Part shown: positions 1 to 8,649 of the stretch, piece by piece | Layout: each line of letters starts with the position of its first letter | Position numbering within the stretch: position 1 is the first letter of the stretch | DNA from: a virus | Taxonomy: Duplodnaviria > Heunggongvirae > Uroviricota > Caudoviricetes | Virus record (IMG/VR): IMGVR_UViG_2571042372_000005 | DNA: 16,037 bases | Direction: 5' to 3' (one strand) | The notes under the pieces: generated by a model | Told to the model about the DNA's origin: nothing | Databases searched by the model: none | Seen by the model: only the letters and a program-made list of their open reading frames with translations | Program-made: the position numbers and the translations under genes

Positions 1-384
1 GAAACGACATTTGTGCTGGATGCTCTGGAGCAGGCGTTATGGGCCCGTCGACCGTCCGGCACGGTCCATCACAGTGATAAAGGTTCTCAGTATGTATCGC
101 TGGCCTACACACAGCGGCTTAAGGAAGCCGGATTACTGGCATCAACAGGAAGTACAGGCGACTCGTATGACAACGCGATGGCGGAGAGCATCAATGGTCT
201 TTACAAAGCGGAGGTAATACACCGTAAGAGCTGGAAAAACCGTGCAGAAGTGGAACTGGCCACACTCACGTGGGTGGACTGGTATAACAATCGACGATTG
301 CTGGAAAGGCTGGGCCATACTCCTCCGGCAGAAGCAGAAAAAGCTTATTATGCTTCCATCGGAAACGATGATCTGGCAGCCTGA
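1..384 (+). CDS. IS629 OrfB transposase (DDE integrase core), 5'-partial at window edge
   Basis: Frame open from base 1 ([31 protein letters not shown]...), same C-terminus as the complete OrfB at 5282..6172; stop at 382..384. Confidence 0.9.
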   Translation, partial: ETTFVLDALEQALWARRPSGTVHHSDKGSQYVSLAYTQRLKEAGLLASTGSTGDSYDNAMAESINGLYKAEVIHRKSWKNRAEVELATLTWVDWYNNRRLLERLGHTPPAEAEKAYYASIGNDDLAA

Positions 385-426
385 GTTCACAGATAAAACA
401 CTCTCCAGGAAACCCGGGGCGGTTCA
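1..426 (+). mobile_element. IS629-like (IS3 family) insertion sequence, copy A, partial: only the 3' 426 bp lies in the window
   Basis: 1..426 matches the reverse complement of 5240..5665 with 2 synonymous substitutions in the stretches compared by eye; ends in the terminal inverted repeat ...CCAGGAAACCCGGGGCGGTTCA at 426. Confidence 0.9.
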
Positions 427-1193
427 ATACGGGAGAACTCATAACCGCAGTCATGACATCTGCCGGAATAGTTCGATTGAATTTGTTTTAGCGCCGGATA
501 CAGTTCGCGGAATAATGCCTGTGAGCGGTTGGCATAATCCCATAGCCATACAAGGCTGTTTGCTTCTTTTGCAGAAAGCTCGTTGGTTTTCTTCTCTTGT
601 TTGCCGATGAACTCACCTTCAAGCACTACCCTGTGGATGTACTCTACTGCTTGTGGTATCTGAGATGCATCAAGCTCTTCAATACTTTCCACATTGAAAC
701 GCTGATGAATCATTGCATAAGCTTCTGGGTACATTAGATGCTTTTTGCTGACTAGCATATTTACAGCATCACGAAGCGGAGTCCTGTCATCAACAGATGT
801 TTTCTTCCGTGCATTTGCTGCCTCTCCCTTTGTCCAGTAGTCATGCAGCACAGTAAAGCATTCTTCCTGGTACTGAATCAGTTTATCGCGGATGTCAGCA
901 CGAACTTTCTCAGGGTTGATGCTGAACAGCCATCCATTTAACTTCTTCAAAGGAAGGCAGAGTAGCTTACGAAGCTTACCATCAGCGGCAACCATGTTCA
1001 TATGAACACAGTTGAATTTGCTAATCTGCTTCATGAGTTTTGTTTGCTGCGTTGACCAGCTCATTCCGAGGTTTTCAACGATTGGCTTCATCGCAACATA
1101 TGCAACTCCGGCAGCCATGGCGGTGATAATTTGCTGACCGTTGAATGGCACGTAAGAGGTGTTCACTGCTTCTAAAATTGCTATACTATTCAT
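427..1193 (-). CDS. ant: Phage antirepressor (Ant-like), 3'-truncated by IS629 copy A
   Basis: ORF 387..1259 reads on into the IS inverted repeat, so the native stop is missing. Likely start is ATG at 1193 ([10 protein letters not shown]...) behind GGAGAAAA; an upstream in-frame ATG at 1259 is the alternative. Position downstream of an Arc-like gene matches P22 immI. Confidence 0.55.
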
Positions 1194-1425
1194 GTTGGTT
1201 TTTCTCCACGGATTTACCGACAACCGAAGCCCTGACTGTTCCAGCAGTTGGGGCTTCACTGTTTTGATTTCTTTGCCGCATCAAGCATCACTTCTGAAAA
1301 CGTGCGCTTGCCACTGAATACTCTTTCTCTTCTCAATTTTTCGTTCGTGCCAAATGATTCGCCATGAACAAAATTTGGTCTTAAAATGGTAATCGCAATC
1401 TCTTTGACTACTGCATCCAAGCGAA

Positions 1426-1578
1426 TCACACCGTTACCCCCTCTCTCTTCAGGCTGTCTATCAGGCGCTTGATAACCTCTGAGTTAAACGACCTGCACTC
1501 TTCCTTTGCCCTGCTACCGATAGCATCCTTTAACGACTGCGGCATCCTTACCAAAATCTTACTTATTTCTTTCTCCAT
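1426..1578 (-). CDS. arc: Arc-like ribbon-helix-helix repressor (50 aa)
   Basis: MEKEISKILVRMPQSLKDAIGSRAKEECRSFNSEVIKRLIDSLKREG resembles P22 Arc as recalled (RS-NSE core, KxEG tail); GGAGGG 5 nt before the ATG at 1578. Confidence 0.7.
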   Translation of the reverse strand: MEKEISKILVRMPQSLKDAIGSRAKEECRSFNSEVIKRLIDSLKREGVTV

Positions 1579-1692
1579 GTTACCCTCCACGCAAACAACT
1601 CTTTTCGAATACAAAAGATAGCAAAGTGAGTATATCTAGTCAAAATTTTTTTGCATACACTTTGCTATCAAATTGAATACCAAAGGTGTTAT
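1579..1692. promoter_or_regulatory. Divergent arc-ant / mnt control region with a 12-bp perfect inverted repeat
   Basis: GATAGCAAAGTG (1617..1628) and CACTTTGCTATC (1658..1669) separated by 29 bp; TTGACT -35-like hexamer on the - strand at 1638..1643; TTGCAT at 1650..1655 on the + strand. Confidence 0.5.
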
Positions 1693-1941
1693 ATGGCAAA
1701 GGGTGTGTCAATTTCTCCAACTACGGTAAGAATCCCTGAATCTTTACGCGAGGCTCTTGCTGTCAGAGCATCAAAAAATGGTCGCTCTGTTAACTCCGAG
1801 ATCGTCATGATTTTGCAAGCCGCGATTGATGAAGATAGGTCGCCAAAGTCAGTTGAGTCATTTGCTCAGCAAGAAGCTGATAAATTCAAAGAGGCGCTAC
1901 TTGAGACGCTAAAGACCATGTATGCTAAGGATGAAAAATAA
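1693..1941 (+). CDS. mnt: Mnt-like ribbon-helix-helix repressor (82 aa)
   Basis: VRIPESLREALAVRASKNGRSVNSEIVMILQAAI matches the Mnt/Arc RHH core (NGRS-NSE); C-terminus ...LKTMYAKDEK resembles P22 Mnt as recalled; divergent from arc. Confidence 0.75.
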   Translation: MAKGVSISPTTVRIPESLREALAVRASKNGRSVNSEIVMILQAAIDEDRSPKSVESFAQQEADKFKEALLETLKTMYAKDEK

Positions 1942-2477
1942 TGCTGCACACAATTCATTTCTTATGCCCTGTTAACACTGCCACTGTTGGGCAACTTCAG
2001 AACCACTGTCTCACCGCATTATCTCAAGGCGCAACTGAATTAAATATCCATATATCAAGTCAGGGAGGGGAAACTGCTGCTGGCTTTACTGCGTATAACT
2101 TTCTTAAGTCACTCCCTGTTACCGTTAGAACTCACAACATAAGCAATGTTGAATCCATAGCTAATATCGTTTTCCTGGCTGGCTCAGAACGTTTCGCAAA
2201 CCCATTATCAAGATTCCTGTTACATCCTCTATTATGGTGCTTTGCCTCCCCAGCCGCCGACCATGCCAGATTGAGAGAGTACGGGAAATGCCTCGATAAC
2301 GATCTTGATCGCTTCGTTGAGACGTTCAATATCGACATCGGAACCCATATTAGGTGGGCATCCCTGATAGCAGACTCGACCATTTTGGATGCTAACAAGG
2401 CTCTTGAGCATGGCATAATTAATTCCATAAAAACTGCAAGGCTGGCATCCAATCAGGCAAACTGGTGGGTTGTTTGA
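1941..2477 (+). CDS. ClpP-fold (S14/S49-like) serine peptidase homologue lacking the ClpP N-terminal region
   Basis: By-eye alignment to E. coli ClpP: IHISSQGGETAAGFTAY vs INSPGGVITAGMSIY; VESIAN Ser aligns with the GQAASMG catalytic Ser; RF-NPLSRFLLHP vs RFCLPNSRVMIHQP keeps the His; a later Asp (ADSTILD) is a candidate third residue. Start ATG overlaps the mnt stop (TAATG). Confidence 0.6.
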   Translation: MLHTIHFLCPVNTATVGQLQNHCLTALSQGATELNIHISSQGGETAAGFTAYNFLKSLPVTVRTHNISNVESIANIVFLAGSERFANPLSRFLLHPLLWCFASPAADHARLREYGKCLDNDLDRFVETFNIDIGTHIRWASLIADSTILDANKALEHGIINSIKTARLASNQANWWVV

Positions 2478-2503
2478 TGGGTAAATCATGATTACTCCTT
2501 ATA

Positions 2504-2527
2504 AAAAACCCACCTGACGGTGGGTTT
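2504..2527. terminator. Intrinsic terminator between convergent genes (possibly bidirectional)
   Basis: AAAAACCCACC-tgac-GGTGGGTTT hairpin; on the - strand it follows the 2526 stop and is followed by a T-run. Confidence 0.7.
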
Positions 2528-2975
2528 AGTCAAACATAGTGTTTCTAAAGTCTCTCGCATACCCTGCTAACACTCTCATTCTATTATGATTGTTAGCAGA
2601 CATGTGAGCTACAGGATGAAAAAGAGCAATCAATGAATACCTGTTCTCATCAAAAAGATTTTGTGCATAAACGAGAGCGGTATTGGATGTTTTATGCCAC
2701 TGCAACTTTTGCGGTGTGCTGATATCTGTGCCATTTTTTATTGGCTCAAATTTATTTTCACCAATTGCTAAATGAAGGTGCATAAGGCCTGCATCTTCAA
2801 TATCAGGAGGTCGATGATAAGAGGTGTCTCTGCCAAAATAGCTGGGCAACGTTCCCGTAGACTTGTAGATGATAAAATCATCTACAAGTGTTTGTTTTAA
2901 ATCAGGAAACTCAACAAAAACCGGGGAGAAAAAATAGTCAAAACTATCCTGATTATATTCCACGGTTACTTGCAT
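2526..2975 (-). CDS. yafO: YafO-family toxin homologue (149 aa)
   Basis: Matches E. coli YafO as recalled: DFIIYKSTGTLPSYFGRD vs DFISYKRDGVLPDIFGRD; HLHLAIGEN vs HIHLANENN; ALVYAQNLFDE...LIALFHPVAHMSANNHNRM vs HLVYCQGAFDE...LIAILKPEPHKLARDNNQM. GAGG SD; starts 8 nt after the upstream stop. Confidence 0.65.
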   Translation of the reverse strand: MQVTVEYNQDSFDYFFSPVFVEFPDLKQTLVDDFIIYKSTGTLPSYFGRDTSYHRPPDIEDAGLMHLHLAIGENKFEPIKNGTDISTPQKLQWHKTSNTALVYAQNLFDENRYSLIALFHPVAHMSANNHNRMRVLAGYARDFRNTMFD

Positions 2976-2983
2976 GTTTTACC

Positions 2984-3550
2984 TCAGTGGAAGTTACCAG
3001 AGTGAAACACACGAGTCCCGTGCTCAGCAAGCGCACGCAAACCAGCCATATCTACGGAACTATCAAAAACAACCGGAACACATGAGCGTTGTTTAATAAG
3101 ACTATTCAGGTTGGTTACGGCAGATCTGGCATCAGCAACAACGATATAGATATCTCTTGCGATCTCTTTAAAATCAGCAGAAGCTTCTTTGAATACCGAT
3201 TTCATTGCCCCTTCAAGTCCTCTCAATTGATGCTCTATCAATCGAGACTTTTCTGGTTCAATGATAGACAACACATTGTCTACATTCTCATCGGTAGCGT
3301 TTGCAAGAACACGATAAGCGTATTTCAGCATTCGAGACAATTCTTTAATCGAAGACACCGCCTCATGAAGCTCATCATTAGCCCGTTCACTGCTGAATGA
3401 GGATTGATGGTAAGCGTGCTGAACGTTATCAGTAACAACCACCTCACAACTGAACGCAGAAGCTTGCTGTAATAGCAAACCTATTGCGACTCCAGCTTTG
3501 GCAGCGTTCAAGCTAAACATTTCATCAATCCCATTAGTCTCATTGCTCAT
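2984..3550 (-). CDS. Hypothetical 188-aa protein encoded immediately upstream of the YafO-like toxin; putative non-canonical antitoxin/partner
   Basis: AAGGAGG SD before the ATG at 3550 (the ORF-track start at 3580 lacks an SD); no RHH/HTH or YafN/Phd-like motif recognisable; same operon as the toxin. Confidence 0.5.
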   Translation of the reverse strand: MSNETNGIDEMFSLNAAKAGVAIGLLLQQASAFSCEVVVTDNVQHAYHQSSFSSERANDELHEAVSSIKELSRMLKYAYRVLANATDENVDNVLSIIEPEKSRLIEHQLRGLEGAMKSVFKEASADFKEIARDIYIVVADARSAVTNLNSLIKQRSCVPVVFDSSVDMAGLRALAEHGTRVFHSGNFH

Positions 3551-3725
3551 ACAAACCTCCTTCTTATCGGAGATTATCAATAGCTATGCATCCATTGAAT
3601 ACACGCTATGCGCAATAAGTTTACGTCACGTGATATCATTATGCAACCACCGTTCTATCACCGACTAACTTTACTCCCACTCCTATACATCATCTGGTAT
3701 CCTGCGCAAAACTAAGGAGGTTGGT

Positions 3726-4076
3726 GTGAATGCTCAGTCTGTCATCATGGTTTTCCTTGGGCTGATTGTCGCAAAACTATATCCAGACTGGTGGAAAGGG
3801 GCATTAGCTACTGTCGCCATCTATTTGCTTTTATCCATCGTTAAGCGATCACTCGCTGAGACCGTAAATCAAGCAAAACGTTTCTCATTTAAGAGTTTAA
3901 TAAACTATGTTACTGGGCTTATTTTTTGCCTTTCAATTCTGATCGCTTCGGCTTTTTTGCCCGTATCAATAGCTAATTTTTTTGGCGCACCATATGAGGT
4001 AGGTTATCTATTCTCTGTTTCCTGTCTTGCCATTGCTCTTCTTTACCTGTGGACGAGATCAAAGAATAAAAATTAG
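3726..4076 (+). CDS. Small integral membrane protein (116 aa, 3-4 predicted TM helices); GTG start
   Basis: AAGGAGG (3714..3720) 5 nt before GTG at 3726; hydrophobic stretches VIMVFLGLIVAKL, ATVAIYLLLSIV, LIFCLSILIASAFLPV, YLFSVSCLAIALLYLW; sits at the P22 sieA-equivalent position. Confidence 0.6.
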   Translation: MNAQSVIMVFLGLIVAKLYPDWWKGALATVAIYLLLSIVKRSLAETVNQAKRFSFKSLINYVTGLIFCLSILIASAFLPVSIANFFGAPYEVGYLFSVSCLAIALLYLWTRSKNKN

Positions 4077-4093
4077 CCATCCGTGGCTGCCAG

Positions 4094-5239
4094 TTATTGA
4101 GCTTCTTTTTGTGATGCCTGTGCGACTCTGGTGAGCGATTGTGTGACCGTACTGATCGCTCTGTCATATGCTGTGCTACCTTTTGGCGTATTTGCCAGAC
4201 GTAACAAGGCATTTCGTATAACAGGGCTTTCGTATGCCTTCGCAGCTCCTCCTACGACACCAGCAGCAGGAACAACAAACGCAGCCGTTTTTAGCATCCC
4301 CGCTAATACTGCTGCGTTTATGATGCCACCACCAACTAACAATCCATAAAGCTGCTGACCATTTAAGTTTTGAACGTTCGCTTTTGCCGCGTGTCTTGTA
4401 TCGTTGAGGTATTTAATAACGCCGTCCAGTTCCTTTCCATGTACGCCTTTAAAGAAAGTTGCTGATTGCTTCCTGTTCCGGTGTAACGCATTAATAAACT
4501 TTTCAACACTAATATTTCCAGACGGATCAGTCGCCTTATCTACAGCATTCTGAACTATGGCTGCTCGTGCGTTTTGCCTACCATTGTCATCCAGAAGCCT
4601 GTAAAGCTGAGAACGTTCTGATGGGTTTTGGCTAAAAACGAGTTTTGTTACATCCTCAGGTGTAGCCTTGCCGCTGGCTATTGCCTTTTGAACGCGCGTT
4701 CTTCCCATCATGTCATTGAATCTAGCCCATGAGCGATCAACCCTAGACATATTGGCAGCTTCTTCTGAGCCTAGTTTTTGGGATACTGCTTTTTTCATAT
4801 CCGCTGTATATGCCTTGTAGACAATATCGCTGGCTTTCTGGAGCGTGTCTTTATCAACAGTCTCGTTTGAATTCATGAACCGCTTTCGAAGGTCAGTTCT
4901 GTTTTCTCTCGCCAGACGCAGGTCATTGGGTCCGCTGGTGATATCGTCTTTAAATTGCTGCAAGACTTTTACCGCGGCTCTATCCTGAGATTTGCCCGGG
5001 CGGCTTAACACGGCAATCTGATTGTCGATAGCTTTTACCGTGTTTGAGAGATCGACAGGGGTATCCCCCATAGCGTCAATTATGCGGTTATATCGCTTTC
5101 CTGCTGCCTCAATGAATTTTTGTTGCCCTTTAGTCGCAGATTCATAAAGCTGTTTATCAGAAATGCCACCCAGACCATCGCTAAATGTTCTGACTAAATT
5201 TTCTCGTGCTTGTTGTTGATTCAGCCGATTCTTACCGGT
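4094..5239 (-). CDS. 5'-truncated phage structural-type protein, possibly an ejection/internal virion protein; N-terminus replaced by IS629 copy B
   Basis: The reading frame is open from the IS junction at 5239 down to the stop at 4094, beyond the first ATG at 5071; C-terminal hydrophobic Gly/Ala-rich segment. Function is inferred from position only. Confidence 0.4.
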   Translation of the reverse strand, partial: TGKNRLNQQQARENLVRTFSDGLGGISDKQLYESATKGQQKFIEAAGKRYNRIIDAMGDTPVDLSNTVKAIDNQIAVLSRPGKSQDRAAVKVLQQFKDDITSGPNDLRLARENRTDLRKRFMNSNETVDKDTLQKASDIVYKAYTADMKKAVSQKLGSEEAANMSRVDRSWARFNDMMGRTRVQKAIASGKATPEDVTKLVFSQNPSERSQLYRLLDDNGRQNARAAIVQNAVDKATDPSGNISVEKFINALHRNRKQSATFFKGVHGKELDGVIKYLNDTRHAAKANVQNLNGQQLYGLLVGGGIINAAVLAGMLKTAAFVVPAAGVVGGAAKAYESPVIRNALLRLANTPKGSTAYDRAISTVTQSLTRVAQASQKEAQ

Positions 5240-5265
5240 TGAACCGCCCCGGGTTTCCTGGAGAG
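5240..5265. repeat. IS629 terminal inverted repeat (orfB-proximal end)
   Basis: TGAACCGCCCCGGGTTTCCTGGAGAG; partner at 6524..6549. Confidence 0.8.
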
Positions 5266-5281
5266 TGTTTTATCTGTGAAC

Positions 5282-6172
5282 TCAGGCTGCCAGATCATCG
5301 TTTCCGATGGAAGCATAATAAGCTTTTTCTGCTTCTGCCGGAGGAGTATGGCCCAGCCTTTCCAGCAATCGTCGATTGTTATACCAGTCCACCCACGTGA
5401 GTGTGGCCAGTTCCACTTCTGCACGGTTTTTCCAGCTCTTACGGTGTATTACCTCCGCTTTGTAAAGACCATTGATGCTCTCCGCCATCGCGTTGTCATA
5501 CGAGTCGCCTGTACTTCCTGTTGATGCCAGTAATCCGGCTTCCTTAAGCCGCTGTGTGTAGGCCAGCGATACATACTGAGAACCTTTATCACTGTGATGG
5601 ACCGTGCCGGACGGTCGACGGGCCCATAACGCCTGCTCCAGTGCATCCAGCACGAATGTCGTTTCCATGGACGATGAGACCCGCCACCCCACGATGTATC
5701 CGGCAAACACATCAATGATGAACGCCACATAGACGAAGCCCCGCCATGTGCTGACGTAAGTAAAATCAGCCACCCACAGCTGGTCAGGTCGTTCTGCCAC
5801 GAACTGACGGTTTACGCGGTCGCCTGCGGCAACGGCTTTCCGGCTGATGGTCGTACGGACCTTTTTACCCCGGAGAACACCGGCAAGTCCCATAACCGCC
5901 ATGAGACGTGCCACAGTGCATCTGGCCACTCTGATACCTTCCCGTAACAACTGACGCCAGACTTTACGCACACCGTATACCTTGTGATTTTCATCGTATA
6001 CGCGCTGTATCTCTTTCTTCAGCCAGTCATCGCGCTGCGCACGGGCACTGCGTTTATCCGGATGATGTCGCTGTTGCTGACAGTGGTAATACGTTGACGG
6101 GGCAATATGCAGTTCGCTGCATAGCGGTCCGACCCCGTACTGCTCACGCAGCTTATCCAGCAGTGGCATCAT
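5282..6172 (-). CDS. IS629 OrfB transposase (DDE integrase core)
   Basis: 296-aa ORF in the -1 frame relative to orfA; IS3-family catalytic-core-like sequence ([10 protein letters not shown]...[15 protein letters not shown]). Confidence 0.9.
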
Positions 6173-6495
6173 TTTTTCCAGAGGCGGTCGAACTCCGCCT
6201 TCGCAAAATAAGCGGAAGCCTGGCGAAGGATATCGTTACTGCGGCGCAGTTCACGATTTTCACGTTCCAGCTCTTTCAGACGCTGACGTTCAGCGGTGGT
6301 GAGCCCTCCATCACCGCCCCCGGTATCCCGCTCATGCTGGCGAACCCAGACACGCAGAGTCTCCGGCGTACAGCCAATCTTTGGAGCAATGGAACAAATT
6401 GTCGCCCATTGTGAGTCATATTCGCTCTGACTTTCCAGAACCATACGGACTGCCCGTTGACGGACTTCGGGGGAAAAACGAGTATTTTTAGTCAT
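6169..6495 (-). CDS. IS629 OrfA (HTH/leucine-zipper transposase N-terminal protein)
   Basis: 108 aa, [21 protein letters not shown]...; ends in the A-run GGAAAAAATGA that overlaps the orfB start, the usual site of -1 frameshifting in this family. Confidence 0.9.
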
Positions 6496-6523
6496 CCTGT
6501 TTACCTCTTTCTCAGGAAGTTTA

Positions 6524-6549
6524 GTCTCCAGGATTCCCGGGGCGGTTCA
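6524..6549. repeat. IS629 terminal inverted repeat (orfA-proximal end)
   Basis: Reverse complement reads TGAACCGCCCCGGGAATCCTGGAGAC. Confidence 0.8.
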
Positions 6550-7705
6550 TGATGATTGAGTCTGCGTCCTGTTCAATGCTTCCTGAATCACGCAAATCTG
6601 CGTTTGTCGGGCGTTTGTTTGGTCGCTTCTCAACATCGCGTGAAAGCTGACTCAGGGAAATAACCGGTGTTTTCAGGTCTTTCGCCATCGCCTTCAGGCT
6701 TCCGGAGATGTGAGCAATTGCGAGGTCGTTGCGGTCTGCTTTCGGCTTCTCAATCAGGCCAAGATAATCCGCCATGATGAGTGAGAGGTTTGGATTTTCC
6801 TGTTTGTGCCGTTCTGCGATTGAGCGTATTTCTTCGACCGATAATCGCGAGGCATCGACTACCCATACATCCAAATCTGCAAGCTGACTCATGCCGTTAG
6901 CAACACGTGCCCAGCCCTCGTCATCCATCGATGCAGGATTTCGCAGTACGCTAACCGACATCCTCCCGGCGTTGGCAATGCTTCGCTCTGCAATCTGCAA
7001 TGCGCTCATTTCCATTGAGAAAATCAATACCCCGCGCCGGACGTCAGAACCAGGAATAACGCGGCTTGCAACGCCTTCGGCAATCTTCAGCGCCAGTTCG
7101 GTTTTCCCCATACCAGGACGAGCAGCGATTATCACCAGGTCTTCCGCGTTCATCCCTCCGGTGATGGCATCAAGTTCTTCGATTCCGGTCTTCAGGGTAT
7201 CGGACTCTTCTCCGTTCCTCAGACGCCTGTCAAGCGTGTCAGTGTAGTCGGTGATGATTTCCCCTAACCGTACAGGTTTAACCTCGTCACGGGGCTTTCT
7301 GATGGCTGAGAGACGTTTTACAAGTTCATCCATCGCCTGACTCGATGCGTCGATGGTTCCGCTTTGGATTGGTTCACGCATTTCATCCATGATTTCCAGC
7401 ACCAGACGGCGGTGATAGTTATCCGCGACCATTCCGGCATATCCCTTCAGGTTTGCGGCGCTCGGGCAGTTTTTGCTGGTCATCAGGATTGACGTGAAAT
7501 GCTCCTCTCCGCACGCCTCGGCAACCATCAGCGCGTCGATTAGGTTTCTGTTTCTCGCCTGCTTCCGGATAACCTCGAAGGCTTTCCGGTAGAGCGGAAT
7601 TGAAAACGCTTCCGGCTCCAGCGTTGCAAGAACGTCACTGGCGGTTGGAGTTAATCCACCAATCAGCAGGCCACCGATAACGCTCGCTTCGATATCCTGT
7701 CTCAT
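6550..7705 (-). CDS. DnaB-family replicative helicase (P22 gene-12-like), 3'-truncated by IS629 copy B
   Basis: Walker [12 protein letters not shown]; DnaB C-terminal motifs [36 protein letters not shown], after which the frame runs into the IS inverted repeat; about 45-60 C-terminal residues missing by comparison with E. coli DnaB. Start ATG overlaps the upstream stop (ATGA). Confidence 0.85.
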
Positions 7706-8649
7706 GCAATCCCCCTGTCTGCAAACTTCCCTTCCCGAACTCCCGTTAACGAGTCTTCTCTCAGCAGGTAATCAAAATCAGCCGTCCAGCCCGTGTCGTT
7801 GTCTCCGAAGTAAAACGGCTTGGCCTGATGCACAAACGCCCTGACATACGCTCTGAAACCGTCCACGTTTGGCGTTTTCAGTTGCGGGATGATTTTCTTC
7901 AGGCGGCGTTTTCGTTTCTCGTTGACCGCAACAGCGTGTGGCAGTCTGTCACCGACTTCGGTGTTGTAGGCGTTCAGGAAGGATTCGTAGTCGATTCGTT
8001 CTGCCTTGCGACGTTCAGGTTTAACCTGCCCATCGCCTCCCCCATTGGGGGGTAGGGGGGTATTATTTATATTCTTGTTAATACCTTCTTGTTCATGATG
8101 TGCGGTTGTTTGTGCGGCTTCATGTGCGCTTTCATGTGCGGCATGTACGCTGAAAGCCGCGCTATTGCTGGCTTCATCATGTGCGGCATCATGTGCGGTT
8201 GTTTGTGCGGCTTCATGTGCGGGTAAATTGTCCATTTTTTGAGCATATTCATGGTAATTTGTGATGGTTATCACACGGCCTTTTTGCTTCTCTCCATCAA
8301 TGGAGATCATCCCCTCTTTCACAAAAACCTGAAGCATCCGCTCAACCTGATCACGGCTTGCTGGCTTGCCATGTCTGTCGCATAACTGAAGACCTAAATC
8401 AGCTGCTGTCACAACCAGTTGACCGGGTTGCAGATGCCATTCATGACCTTTGAAATTCGCTTTGTATGGCTTTCTGGCGGCATTCAGGAGAAGGTTTTCC
8501 CACAGGGTGCGAAGATAAACATCTTTCGCCCATGACTGTTTCAGAATGCTCCGGTACAACGGAATGTAACCAGTTTTCTGGTTCTCCATCCTGTTGCTCC
8601 TGCGCTCGTGTGCGGCGCTGAAATCGTAGATTTTTGCTGTATTGCTCAT
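7702..8649 (-). CDS. Replication initiator (lambda O / P22 gene-18-like) containing the origin iterons
   Basis: N-terminus [10 protein letters not shown]... recalls lambda O (MTNTAKILNF...); internal reiterated [10 protein letters not shown] peptide corresponds to DNA iterons; translationally coupled to the helicase. Confidence 0.7.
8055..8222. repeat. Putative phage replication origin: two clusters of 12-bp-period iterons (8094..8222) with an adjacent AT-rich stretch (8055..8093)
   Basis: (C/T)ATGTGCGG repeated about 9 times; a 35-bp unit is near-perfectly duplicated (8094..8128 and 8187..8221); the AT-rich stretch lies downstream in the direction of O transcription, as in lambda ori. Confidence 0.6.

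Follow-up and report, generated by a model that had tools for sequence, protein, structure and literature searches.

The segment from position 1194 to about 1263 of the window (the whole 16,037-nt stretch of DNA that was analysed), read on the + strand, is, to judge from sequence comparison, the sar gene of a P22-like immI (immunity I) region, an assignment to which we give a probability of roughly 95%. The initial annotation had noticed here a hairpin with a T-rich tail, antisense to the ribosome-binding region of ant, and had proposed a sar-like RNA. This is borne out by a full-length match to the Rfam sar family on the + strand and by near-identity to the sar annotated in phages P22 and epsilon34: the hairpin and its tail are the sar of P22, an element already described, in a nearly unchanged copy. 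The present locus leaves the understanding of sar as it was and its value lies in annotating the element correctly. For these E. coli prophages RefSeq lists protein genes only and leaves sar unlabelled, though Rfam detects it.

In P22, Mnt and Arc repress the promoter Pant, and ant mRNA arises also from read-through of the late operon (PMC2629481, PMC13397905, PMC12111858). The sar RNA is transcribed in the opposite direction from Psar, is complementary to the ant leader and its Shine-Dalgarno sequence, and blocks ant translation (PMC2629481, PMC13397905). It is ~68-69 nt long; its repression of ant by pairing is known (Liao et al. 1987, Wu et al. 1987, Schaefer & McClure 1997, as cited in PMC2629481) and it is seen in small-RNA sequencing reads (PMC13397905), while the sar of UAB_Phi20 was detected by RT-qPCR (PMC12111858). 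At the locus of the window, the sequence, the fold, the promoter and terminator motifs, the complementarity and the surrounding immI genes are shown directly; from homology with P22 we infer that the RNA is transcribed, where precisely it ends, and that it represses ant. An extended -10 Psar within the first ant codons would give rise to an RNA of ~70 nt starting at G1194, the base that adjoins the ant ATG, and termination would take place at the 14-bp hairpin 1226..1257 with its U-rich tail. Such an RNA would be fully complementary to the ant mRNA leader (-1 to about -70), would display the sequence CUCC in its first loop, and would pair with ant mRNA coming from Pant or from late-operon read-through. 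Occlusion of the ribosome-binding site would then lower the amount of Ant, and a prophage-type repressor would be spared antirepression.

The Rfam family of sar RNA, RF00262, matches 1194..1260 (+) over the full length of its model (1-68 of 68) with 83.9 bits (E 1e-16), the gathering score of the family being 43. It is one of the two matches that exceed their gathering score in a scan of the whole window. A permissive scan of 1000..1800 brings only two additional matches. One is a reverse-strand echo of RF00262 (16.5 bits) that comes from hairpin 2. The other, ctRNA_pGA1 (RF00236), was rejected as a family assignment: with 26.1 bits it falls short of its gathering score of 45, and it resembles the window through its terminator hairpin only. 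Our own covariance model, R1, scores 101.3 bits across 1194..1263.

Nucleotide comparison leads to the same element. BLAST finds 1100..1700 to be 100% identical in E. coli S88, APEC O1 and ATCC 11775, among others, and the immI segment is matched in 370 of 5426 complete E. coli genomes (~7%). Identity to phage phiv205-1 is 99.7% over 1100..1700 and 100% over 1140..1280; to epsilon34, 98% over 1100..1258 and 97.5% over 1140..1258; to P22, 89% over 1102..1258 and 94% over 1141..1258. Over 1159..1257, which takes in Psar and sar as far as hairpin 2, five positions differ from P22, namely the last base of the -35 hexamer, one base of loop 1, a G-U to G-C change in stem 1, and two bases of loop 2. 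Transfer of the annotations of P22 (BK000583) and epsilon34 to the window puts Psar at 1159..1187, sar at 1194..1263 and the terminator at 1226..1263 (Table 1). The gene order mnt / Pant / arc / (ORF57) / sar / ant is that of an immI region, with P22_AR_N and P22_AR_C domains in ant and an Arc domain in each of the two genes that resemble arc and mnt.

Table 1. Features of the immI segment and its borders, with window coordinates and the basis of each assignment
Feature	Position	Strand	Basis
3' end of IS3-family element inserted in ant	1..425	+	annotated IS3 family transposase; antirepressor 'missing C-terminus'
ant (antirepressor), ATG 1193..1191	426..1193	-	Pfam P22_AR_N 3e-45, partial P22_AR_C
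Putative Psar, -35 hexamer GTGTTC (P22: GTGTTA), within ant codons 10-12	1159..1164	+	mapping from P22 BK000583 (L007 619..647) and epsilon34
Putative Psar, extended -10 TGcTATACT, within ant codons 2-5 (N-S-I-A)	1179..1187	+	alignment
sar antisense RNA (predicted extent, 5' end G1194)	1194..1263	+	RF00262, own model R1 and P22 misc_RNA mapping
Stem-loop 1, anti-Shine-Dalgarno in loop	1194..1221	+	GUUGGU 1194..1199 with ACCGAC 1216..1221; MFE fold
CUCC of sar loop 1 (anti-Shine-Dalgarno)	1204..1207		read from sequence; - strand reads GGAG, the ant Shine-Dalgarno
Stem-loop 2, sar intrinsic terminator hairpin (predicted)	1226..1257	+	14 bp, loop UCCA; fold and terminator scan
U-rich terminator tail ACUGUUUUG (predicted)	1258..1266	+	non-homologous to P22 tail AACUUUACG
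ORF57, hypothetical protein, GTG start, 57 codons	1256..1429	-	annotated in S88 and phiv205-1, WP_000620145.1; phrog_17642 1e-43
arc-type repressor gene	1426..1578	-	Pfam Arc 5e-12; 32% identity to P22 Arc; annotated Arc family protein
Pant-like promoter (TTGACT, 17 nt, TATCTT, with TG), upstream of arc	1615..1643	-	promoter scan
mnt-type repressor gene, divergent from arc	1693..1941	+	Pfam Arc 1e-10; phrog_2685 1e-31

A putative Psar is found in the first codons of ant, convergent with the Pant-like promoter, which occupies the position of Pant/Pmnt in P22 and epsilon34. In the epsilon34 record the corresponding element carries the label 'promoter located by similarity with P22 Psar'. Psar is absent from the hits of a generic sigma-70 scan because its -35 hexamer fits TTGACA at only two of six positions, one fewer than in P22. 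Its -10 region is conserved: among homologues, TGCTA is invariant (13/13) and the full TGCTATACT is present in ten of 13. Upstream of this motif the sequence is unrelated to that of the window in CUS-3, PhiR12_4, EC.P3 and Emek, and TGCTATACT is retained also where the N-terminus of ant differs. A promoter embedded in ant predicts that synonymous sites of the gene would be conserved there.

The bases of the hairpin had been read correctly from the start, with GAAGCCC at 1226..1232, GGGGCTTC at 1250..1257 and the tail ACTGTTTTGATTTCTTTG at 1258..1275. The two arms do pair; the stem is longer than the 7-8 bp first assigned to it, since 1226..1239 pairs with 1244..1257 in 14 base pairs, 7 of them G-C, closing a loop of 4 nt. 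Taken alone, a terminator pattern of this kind is at chance level, with one found in a 1.1-kb stretch against 1.0 +/- 1.1 expected in shuffled sequence. The folding that had been proposed as a check gives, for 1194..1266, two hairpins with a free energy of -32.4 kcal/mol (z -6.4); shuffled versions of this segment average -15.6 +/- 2.6 kcal/mol and none of 200 dinucleotide shuffles equals the native fold. The two stem-loops have the layout of sar RNA, the 5' one bearing the anti-Shine-Dalgarno and the 3' one G+C-rich and followed by U residues. On the opposite strand, the GGAG of ant (1207..1204) lies 10 nt ahead of the ATG, at the ribosome-binding site annotated in P22 record X01916. The tail of sar is antisense to the final codons of ORF57 (K-Q-stop). 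The 5' end and the extent of sar follow the P22 annotation, while the 3' end, at 1260..1266, is only predicted because the tail is non-homologous to that of P22.

Conservation of the fold was followed in the window and 12 homologues from phages of Salmonella, E. coli, Cronobacter, Edwardsiella and Erwinia. Folded singly, all 13 sequences form two hairpins and 12 share the same architecture, in which the first bases of the RNA and those immediately ahead of hairpin 2 form the 5' helix; Edwardsiella phage GF-2 is the exception, with a shorter local hairpin as its 5' helix. A covariance model built from four close copies was used to align the homologues, keeping matches at E <= 0.001; a threshold of E <= 1 drew in reverse-strand matches. 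In the resulting alignment of the 13 homologues 98.1% of pair cells hold standard pairs, and compensatory changes are seen in nine of the 20 pairs, including all six of stem 1. These values are never attained in 500 column shuffles, and 3' partners slid out of register are paired at 35-47%. This alignment is itself fitted to the structure, and the single-sequence folds are an independent support for the same fold; on a plain MAFFT alignment RNAalifold recovers hairpin 2 alone, stem 1 being misaligned. A sar-like RNA lies between arc and ant of Erwinia phage Midgardsormr38 (L015 756..825, +). The Rfam scan at E <= 0.01 missed it and our own model finds it with 27.8 bits (E 2e-4); both of its hairpins show compensatory changes, and the TGCTATACT promoter element is present here as well. 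Because it was found by our own model alone, the family extends past the reach of the Rfam model.

The strand on which this structure acts deserves consideration, since the hairpins could instead serve in the sense (-) leader of the arc-ant mRNA, governing translation of ant, processing or stability of the message, with no need of an antisense RNA. The complement of the hairpin folds as well, into an interrupted stem of 7+4 pairs, and the target of any antisense RNA necessarily bears the mirror image of its structure. We nonetheless hold this explanation to be very improbable. Hairpin 2 is nearly invariant in the family, and its U-G, G-U and U-G pairs, which are kept in 9-12 of the 13 homologues, become A-C mismatches on the complementary strand, as do several such pairs of stem 1. 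Folding of the - strand gives z -2.2, a weak value next to the -6.4 of the + strand, and the covariance model of the Rfam family likewise separates the two strands, with 16.5 against 83.9 bits. Conserved G-U pairs and a weak - strand fold together argue that the selected structure is that of the + strand RNA. The conserved extended -10 is directed into the + strand, and a U-tract follows the hairpin on this strand only; without one on the - strand, transcripts from Pant and from the late operon should read through into ant.

Two points about the ant leader raised in the initial annotation needed correction. Arithmetically, the roughly 230 bp given for the stretch from arc to the ATG at 1193 are right (1194..1425 is 232 nt), but this is not an unusually long intergenic gap because ORF57 fills it. 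The start of this ORF overlaps the arc stop codon (1426..1428) as GTGA, with AGGGGG ~6 nt upstream, and its own stop TGA (1258..1256) overlaps the final two bases of hairpin 2. What is left between ORF57 and ant is an intercistronic region of 62 nt (1194..1255), compared to 68 nt in P22; sar fills both, reaching from the ant ATG to the stop of the upstream ORF. ORF57 is a putative coding sequence. A Pfam search of its product returns no family, tblastn against phages finds it in phiv205-1 only, and a search of 5.8 billion proteins gives only 10 near-identical clusters. An ORF57-sar arrangement occurs also in Klebsiella aerogenes, beside an ant of the KilA-N type. The two ORF57 copies differ at 11 positions, distributed 6/2/3 over the three codon positions and amounting to 8 non-synonymous and 3 synonymous codons, a pattern from which purifying selection on ORF57 is not evident.

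The second correction concerns the start of ant, for which position 1259, a GTG, had been raised as an alternative. The hairpins would then be part of the coding sequence and have no meaning at the RNA level. The ant frame is indeed open from 1259 in the window, as it is in some genomes only, and this GTG overlaps the ORF57 stop as GTGA. We find the idea barely credible in the light of the homologues: in P22, PhiR12_4, ES2, SEN22 and the Erwinia phage, in-frame stops fall between the hairpin and the ATG, and the lengths of the leaders differ among homologues by numbers that are not multiples of 3. The motif M-(N/K/T/S)-S-(I/L)-A at the ATG is conserved, the GGAG stands at the same distance from it as the ribosome-binding site of P22, and RefSeq as well as the P22 and epsilon34 records annotate the ATG start. 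The ant gene starts at ATG 1193..1191.

Homology to P22 and epsilon34 ends at 1258, directly after hairpin 2, and both the tail of sar and the sequence upstream belong to another module. Different phages carry unrelated small ORFs at this place, with 57 codons here, 73 in Emek and 611R6 (phrog_11805; L006 1657..1878 and L014 734..955) and 89 in EC.P3 (phrog_27312; L005 1579..1848). All of them share bases with the arc stop codon and extend to the sar hairpin, where they end, showing that the arc/sar junction is a slot for the insertion of unrelated small ORFs. Hairpin 2 is near-invariant though the genes flanking it differ on both sides across phages. In CUS-3 an annotated 'boundary sequence' starts 10 nt after the ant start codon and spans the sar region. 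Hairpin 2, located at the breakpoint 1258, may be a recombination linker through which immI modules (arc, ORF57, orf73, orf89 and several types of ant) are shuffled. On the other side of the region, the first base of a gene for a ClpP-like serine protease (1941..2477, +) is also the final one of the mnt-like stop codon (TAATG, 1939..1943), and this overlap suggests that the two are probably co-transcribed. A gene for a YafO-family toxin (2526..2975, -) adjoins the ClpP-like gene on the opposite strand. Neither belongs to the immI region of P22.

BLAST assigns the window to a P22-like (Lederbergvirus) prophage of E. coli, a decayed remnant devoid of morphogenesis genes. An IS3 element cuts ant after codon 256, removing the last 45 codons; the ORF continues into the IS and stops at 387. 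Intact ant has 300 codons in S88 and phiv205-1, and identity to the intact S88 prophage begins at 426. Of 5426 complete E. coli genomes, only 4 have this exact IS3-ant junction. FDAARGOS_1301, the nearest complete genome, shares 99.97% identity over window positions 1..6550 and carries the immI segment between two inverted IS3 copies, within a remnant beside tRNA-Arg and intS in which the genes for injection and replication are truncated and those for head and tail are missing. Inverted IS3-family copies are also found in the window, at 1..425 and 5239..6556, with an ALIL frameshift pseudoknot at 6098..6214 (120 bits); the second copy abuts a truncated gene for a DnaB-like helicase (6521..7705, -). 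A segment of 1.76 kb (6551..8314), which codes for the greater part of the DnaB-type helicase and for a portion of a replication-initiation protein (7702..8649, -), is missing from the FDAARGOS_1301 chromosome, elsewhere 99.97-99.99% identical. Its presence in one and absence from the other indicate different IS3-associated deletions in the two strains.

The sar element is intact here, but because IS3 truncates ant and the prophage is a remnant, its target in cis is probably dead. Its cis function is probably vestigial and any role left to it would be in trans. A possible, though doubtful, extension of this view is that the element is sar by descent and a functionless relic in the window, persisting only because the decay is recent. 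The cut at 425/426 that deprives ant of part of P22_AR_C, the position of the segment between two IS3 copies among truncated neighbours, and the rarity of the junction, which points to a recent event, are all in agreement with it. On the other hand, neither sar nor its promoter and terminator show any damage, all three being identical to their counterparts in the intact S88 prophage and in phiv205-1, and an RNA that acts in trans has no need of a local ant. The question touches present-day function only and leaves the identity of the element as sar unaffected. A more daring proposal, which we regard as unlikely, is that the intact Psar-sar provides trans-acting RNA immunity against incoming P22-like phages sharing the ant leader. 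A sar encoded by a remnant would then dampen Ant synthesis by the incoming phages and thereby have an RNA immunity function. The linker role of hairpin 2 considered above is a related possibility, likewise unlikely.

The sar of the window resembles that of P22 in starting beside the ant ATG and running to the stop codon of the upstream gene, in having an extended -10 promoter within ant, and in its two-hairpin fold with an anti-Shine-Dalgarno in loop 1; the stem sequence of hairpin 2 is identical. The two differ in the last base of the -35 hexamer and in the tail, ACUGUUUUG in the window and AACUUUACG in P22. The upstream gene is an orphan ORF of 57 codons here, whereas it is arc in P22, and the Arc and Mnt proteins of the window are only 32-35% identical to their P22 counterparts. 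The window differs furthermore by its E. coli host and by its ant cut by IS3. The sar of epsilon34 (NC_011976, annotated as misc_RNA) shows three differences across 1159..1257, of which the first precedes the RNA and the others fall within stem 1 and loop 2, and has arc directly upstream, as in P22, where the window has ORF57. The E. coli phages phiv205-1 and vB_EcoP-611R6 are sar carriers too, the slot ORF of 73 codons in 611R6 being unrelated to ORF57. Lambda OOP, P22 sas and ctRNA_pGA1 are likewise short structured RNAs that end with an intrinsic terminator and pair with an overlapping mRNA, but they share no homology with the sar of the window.
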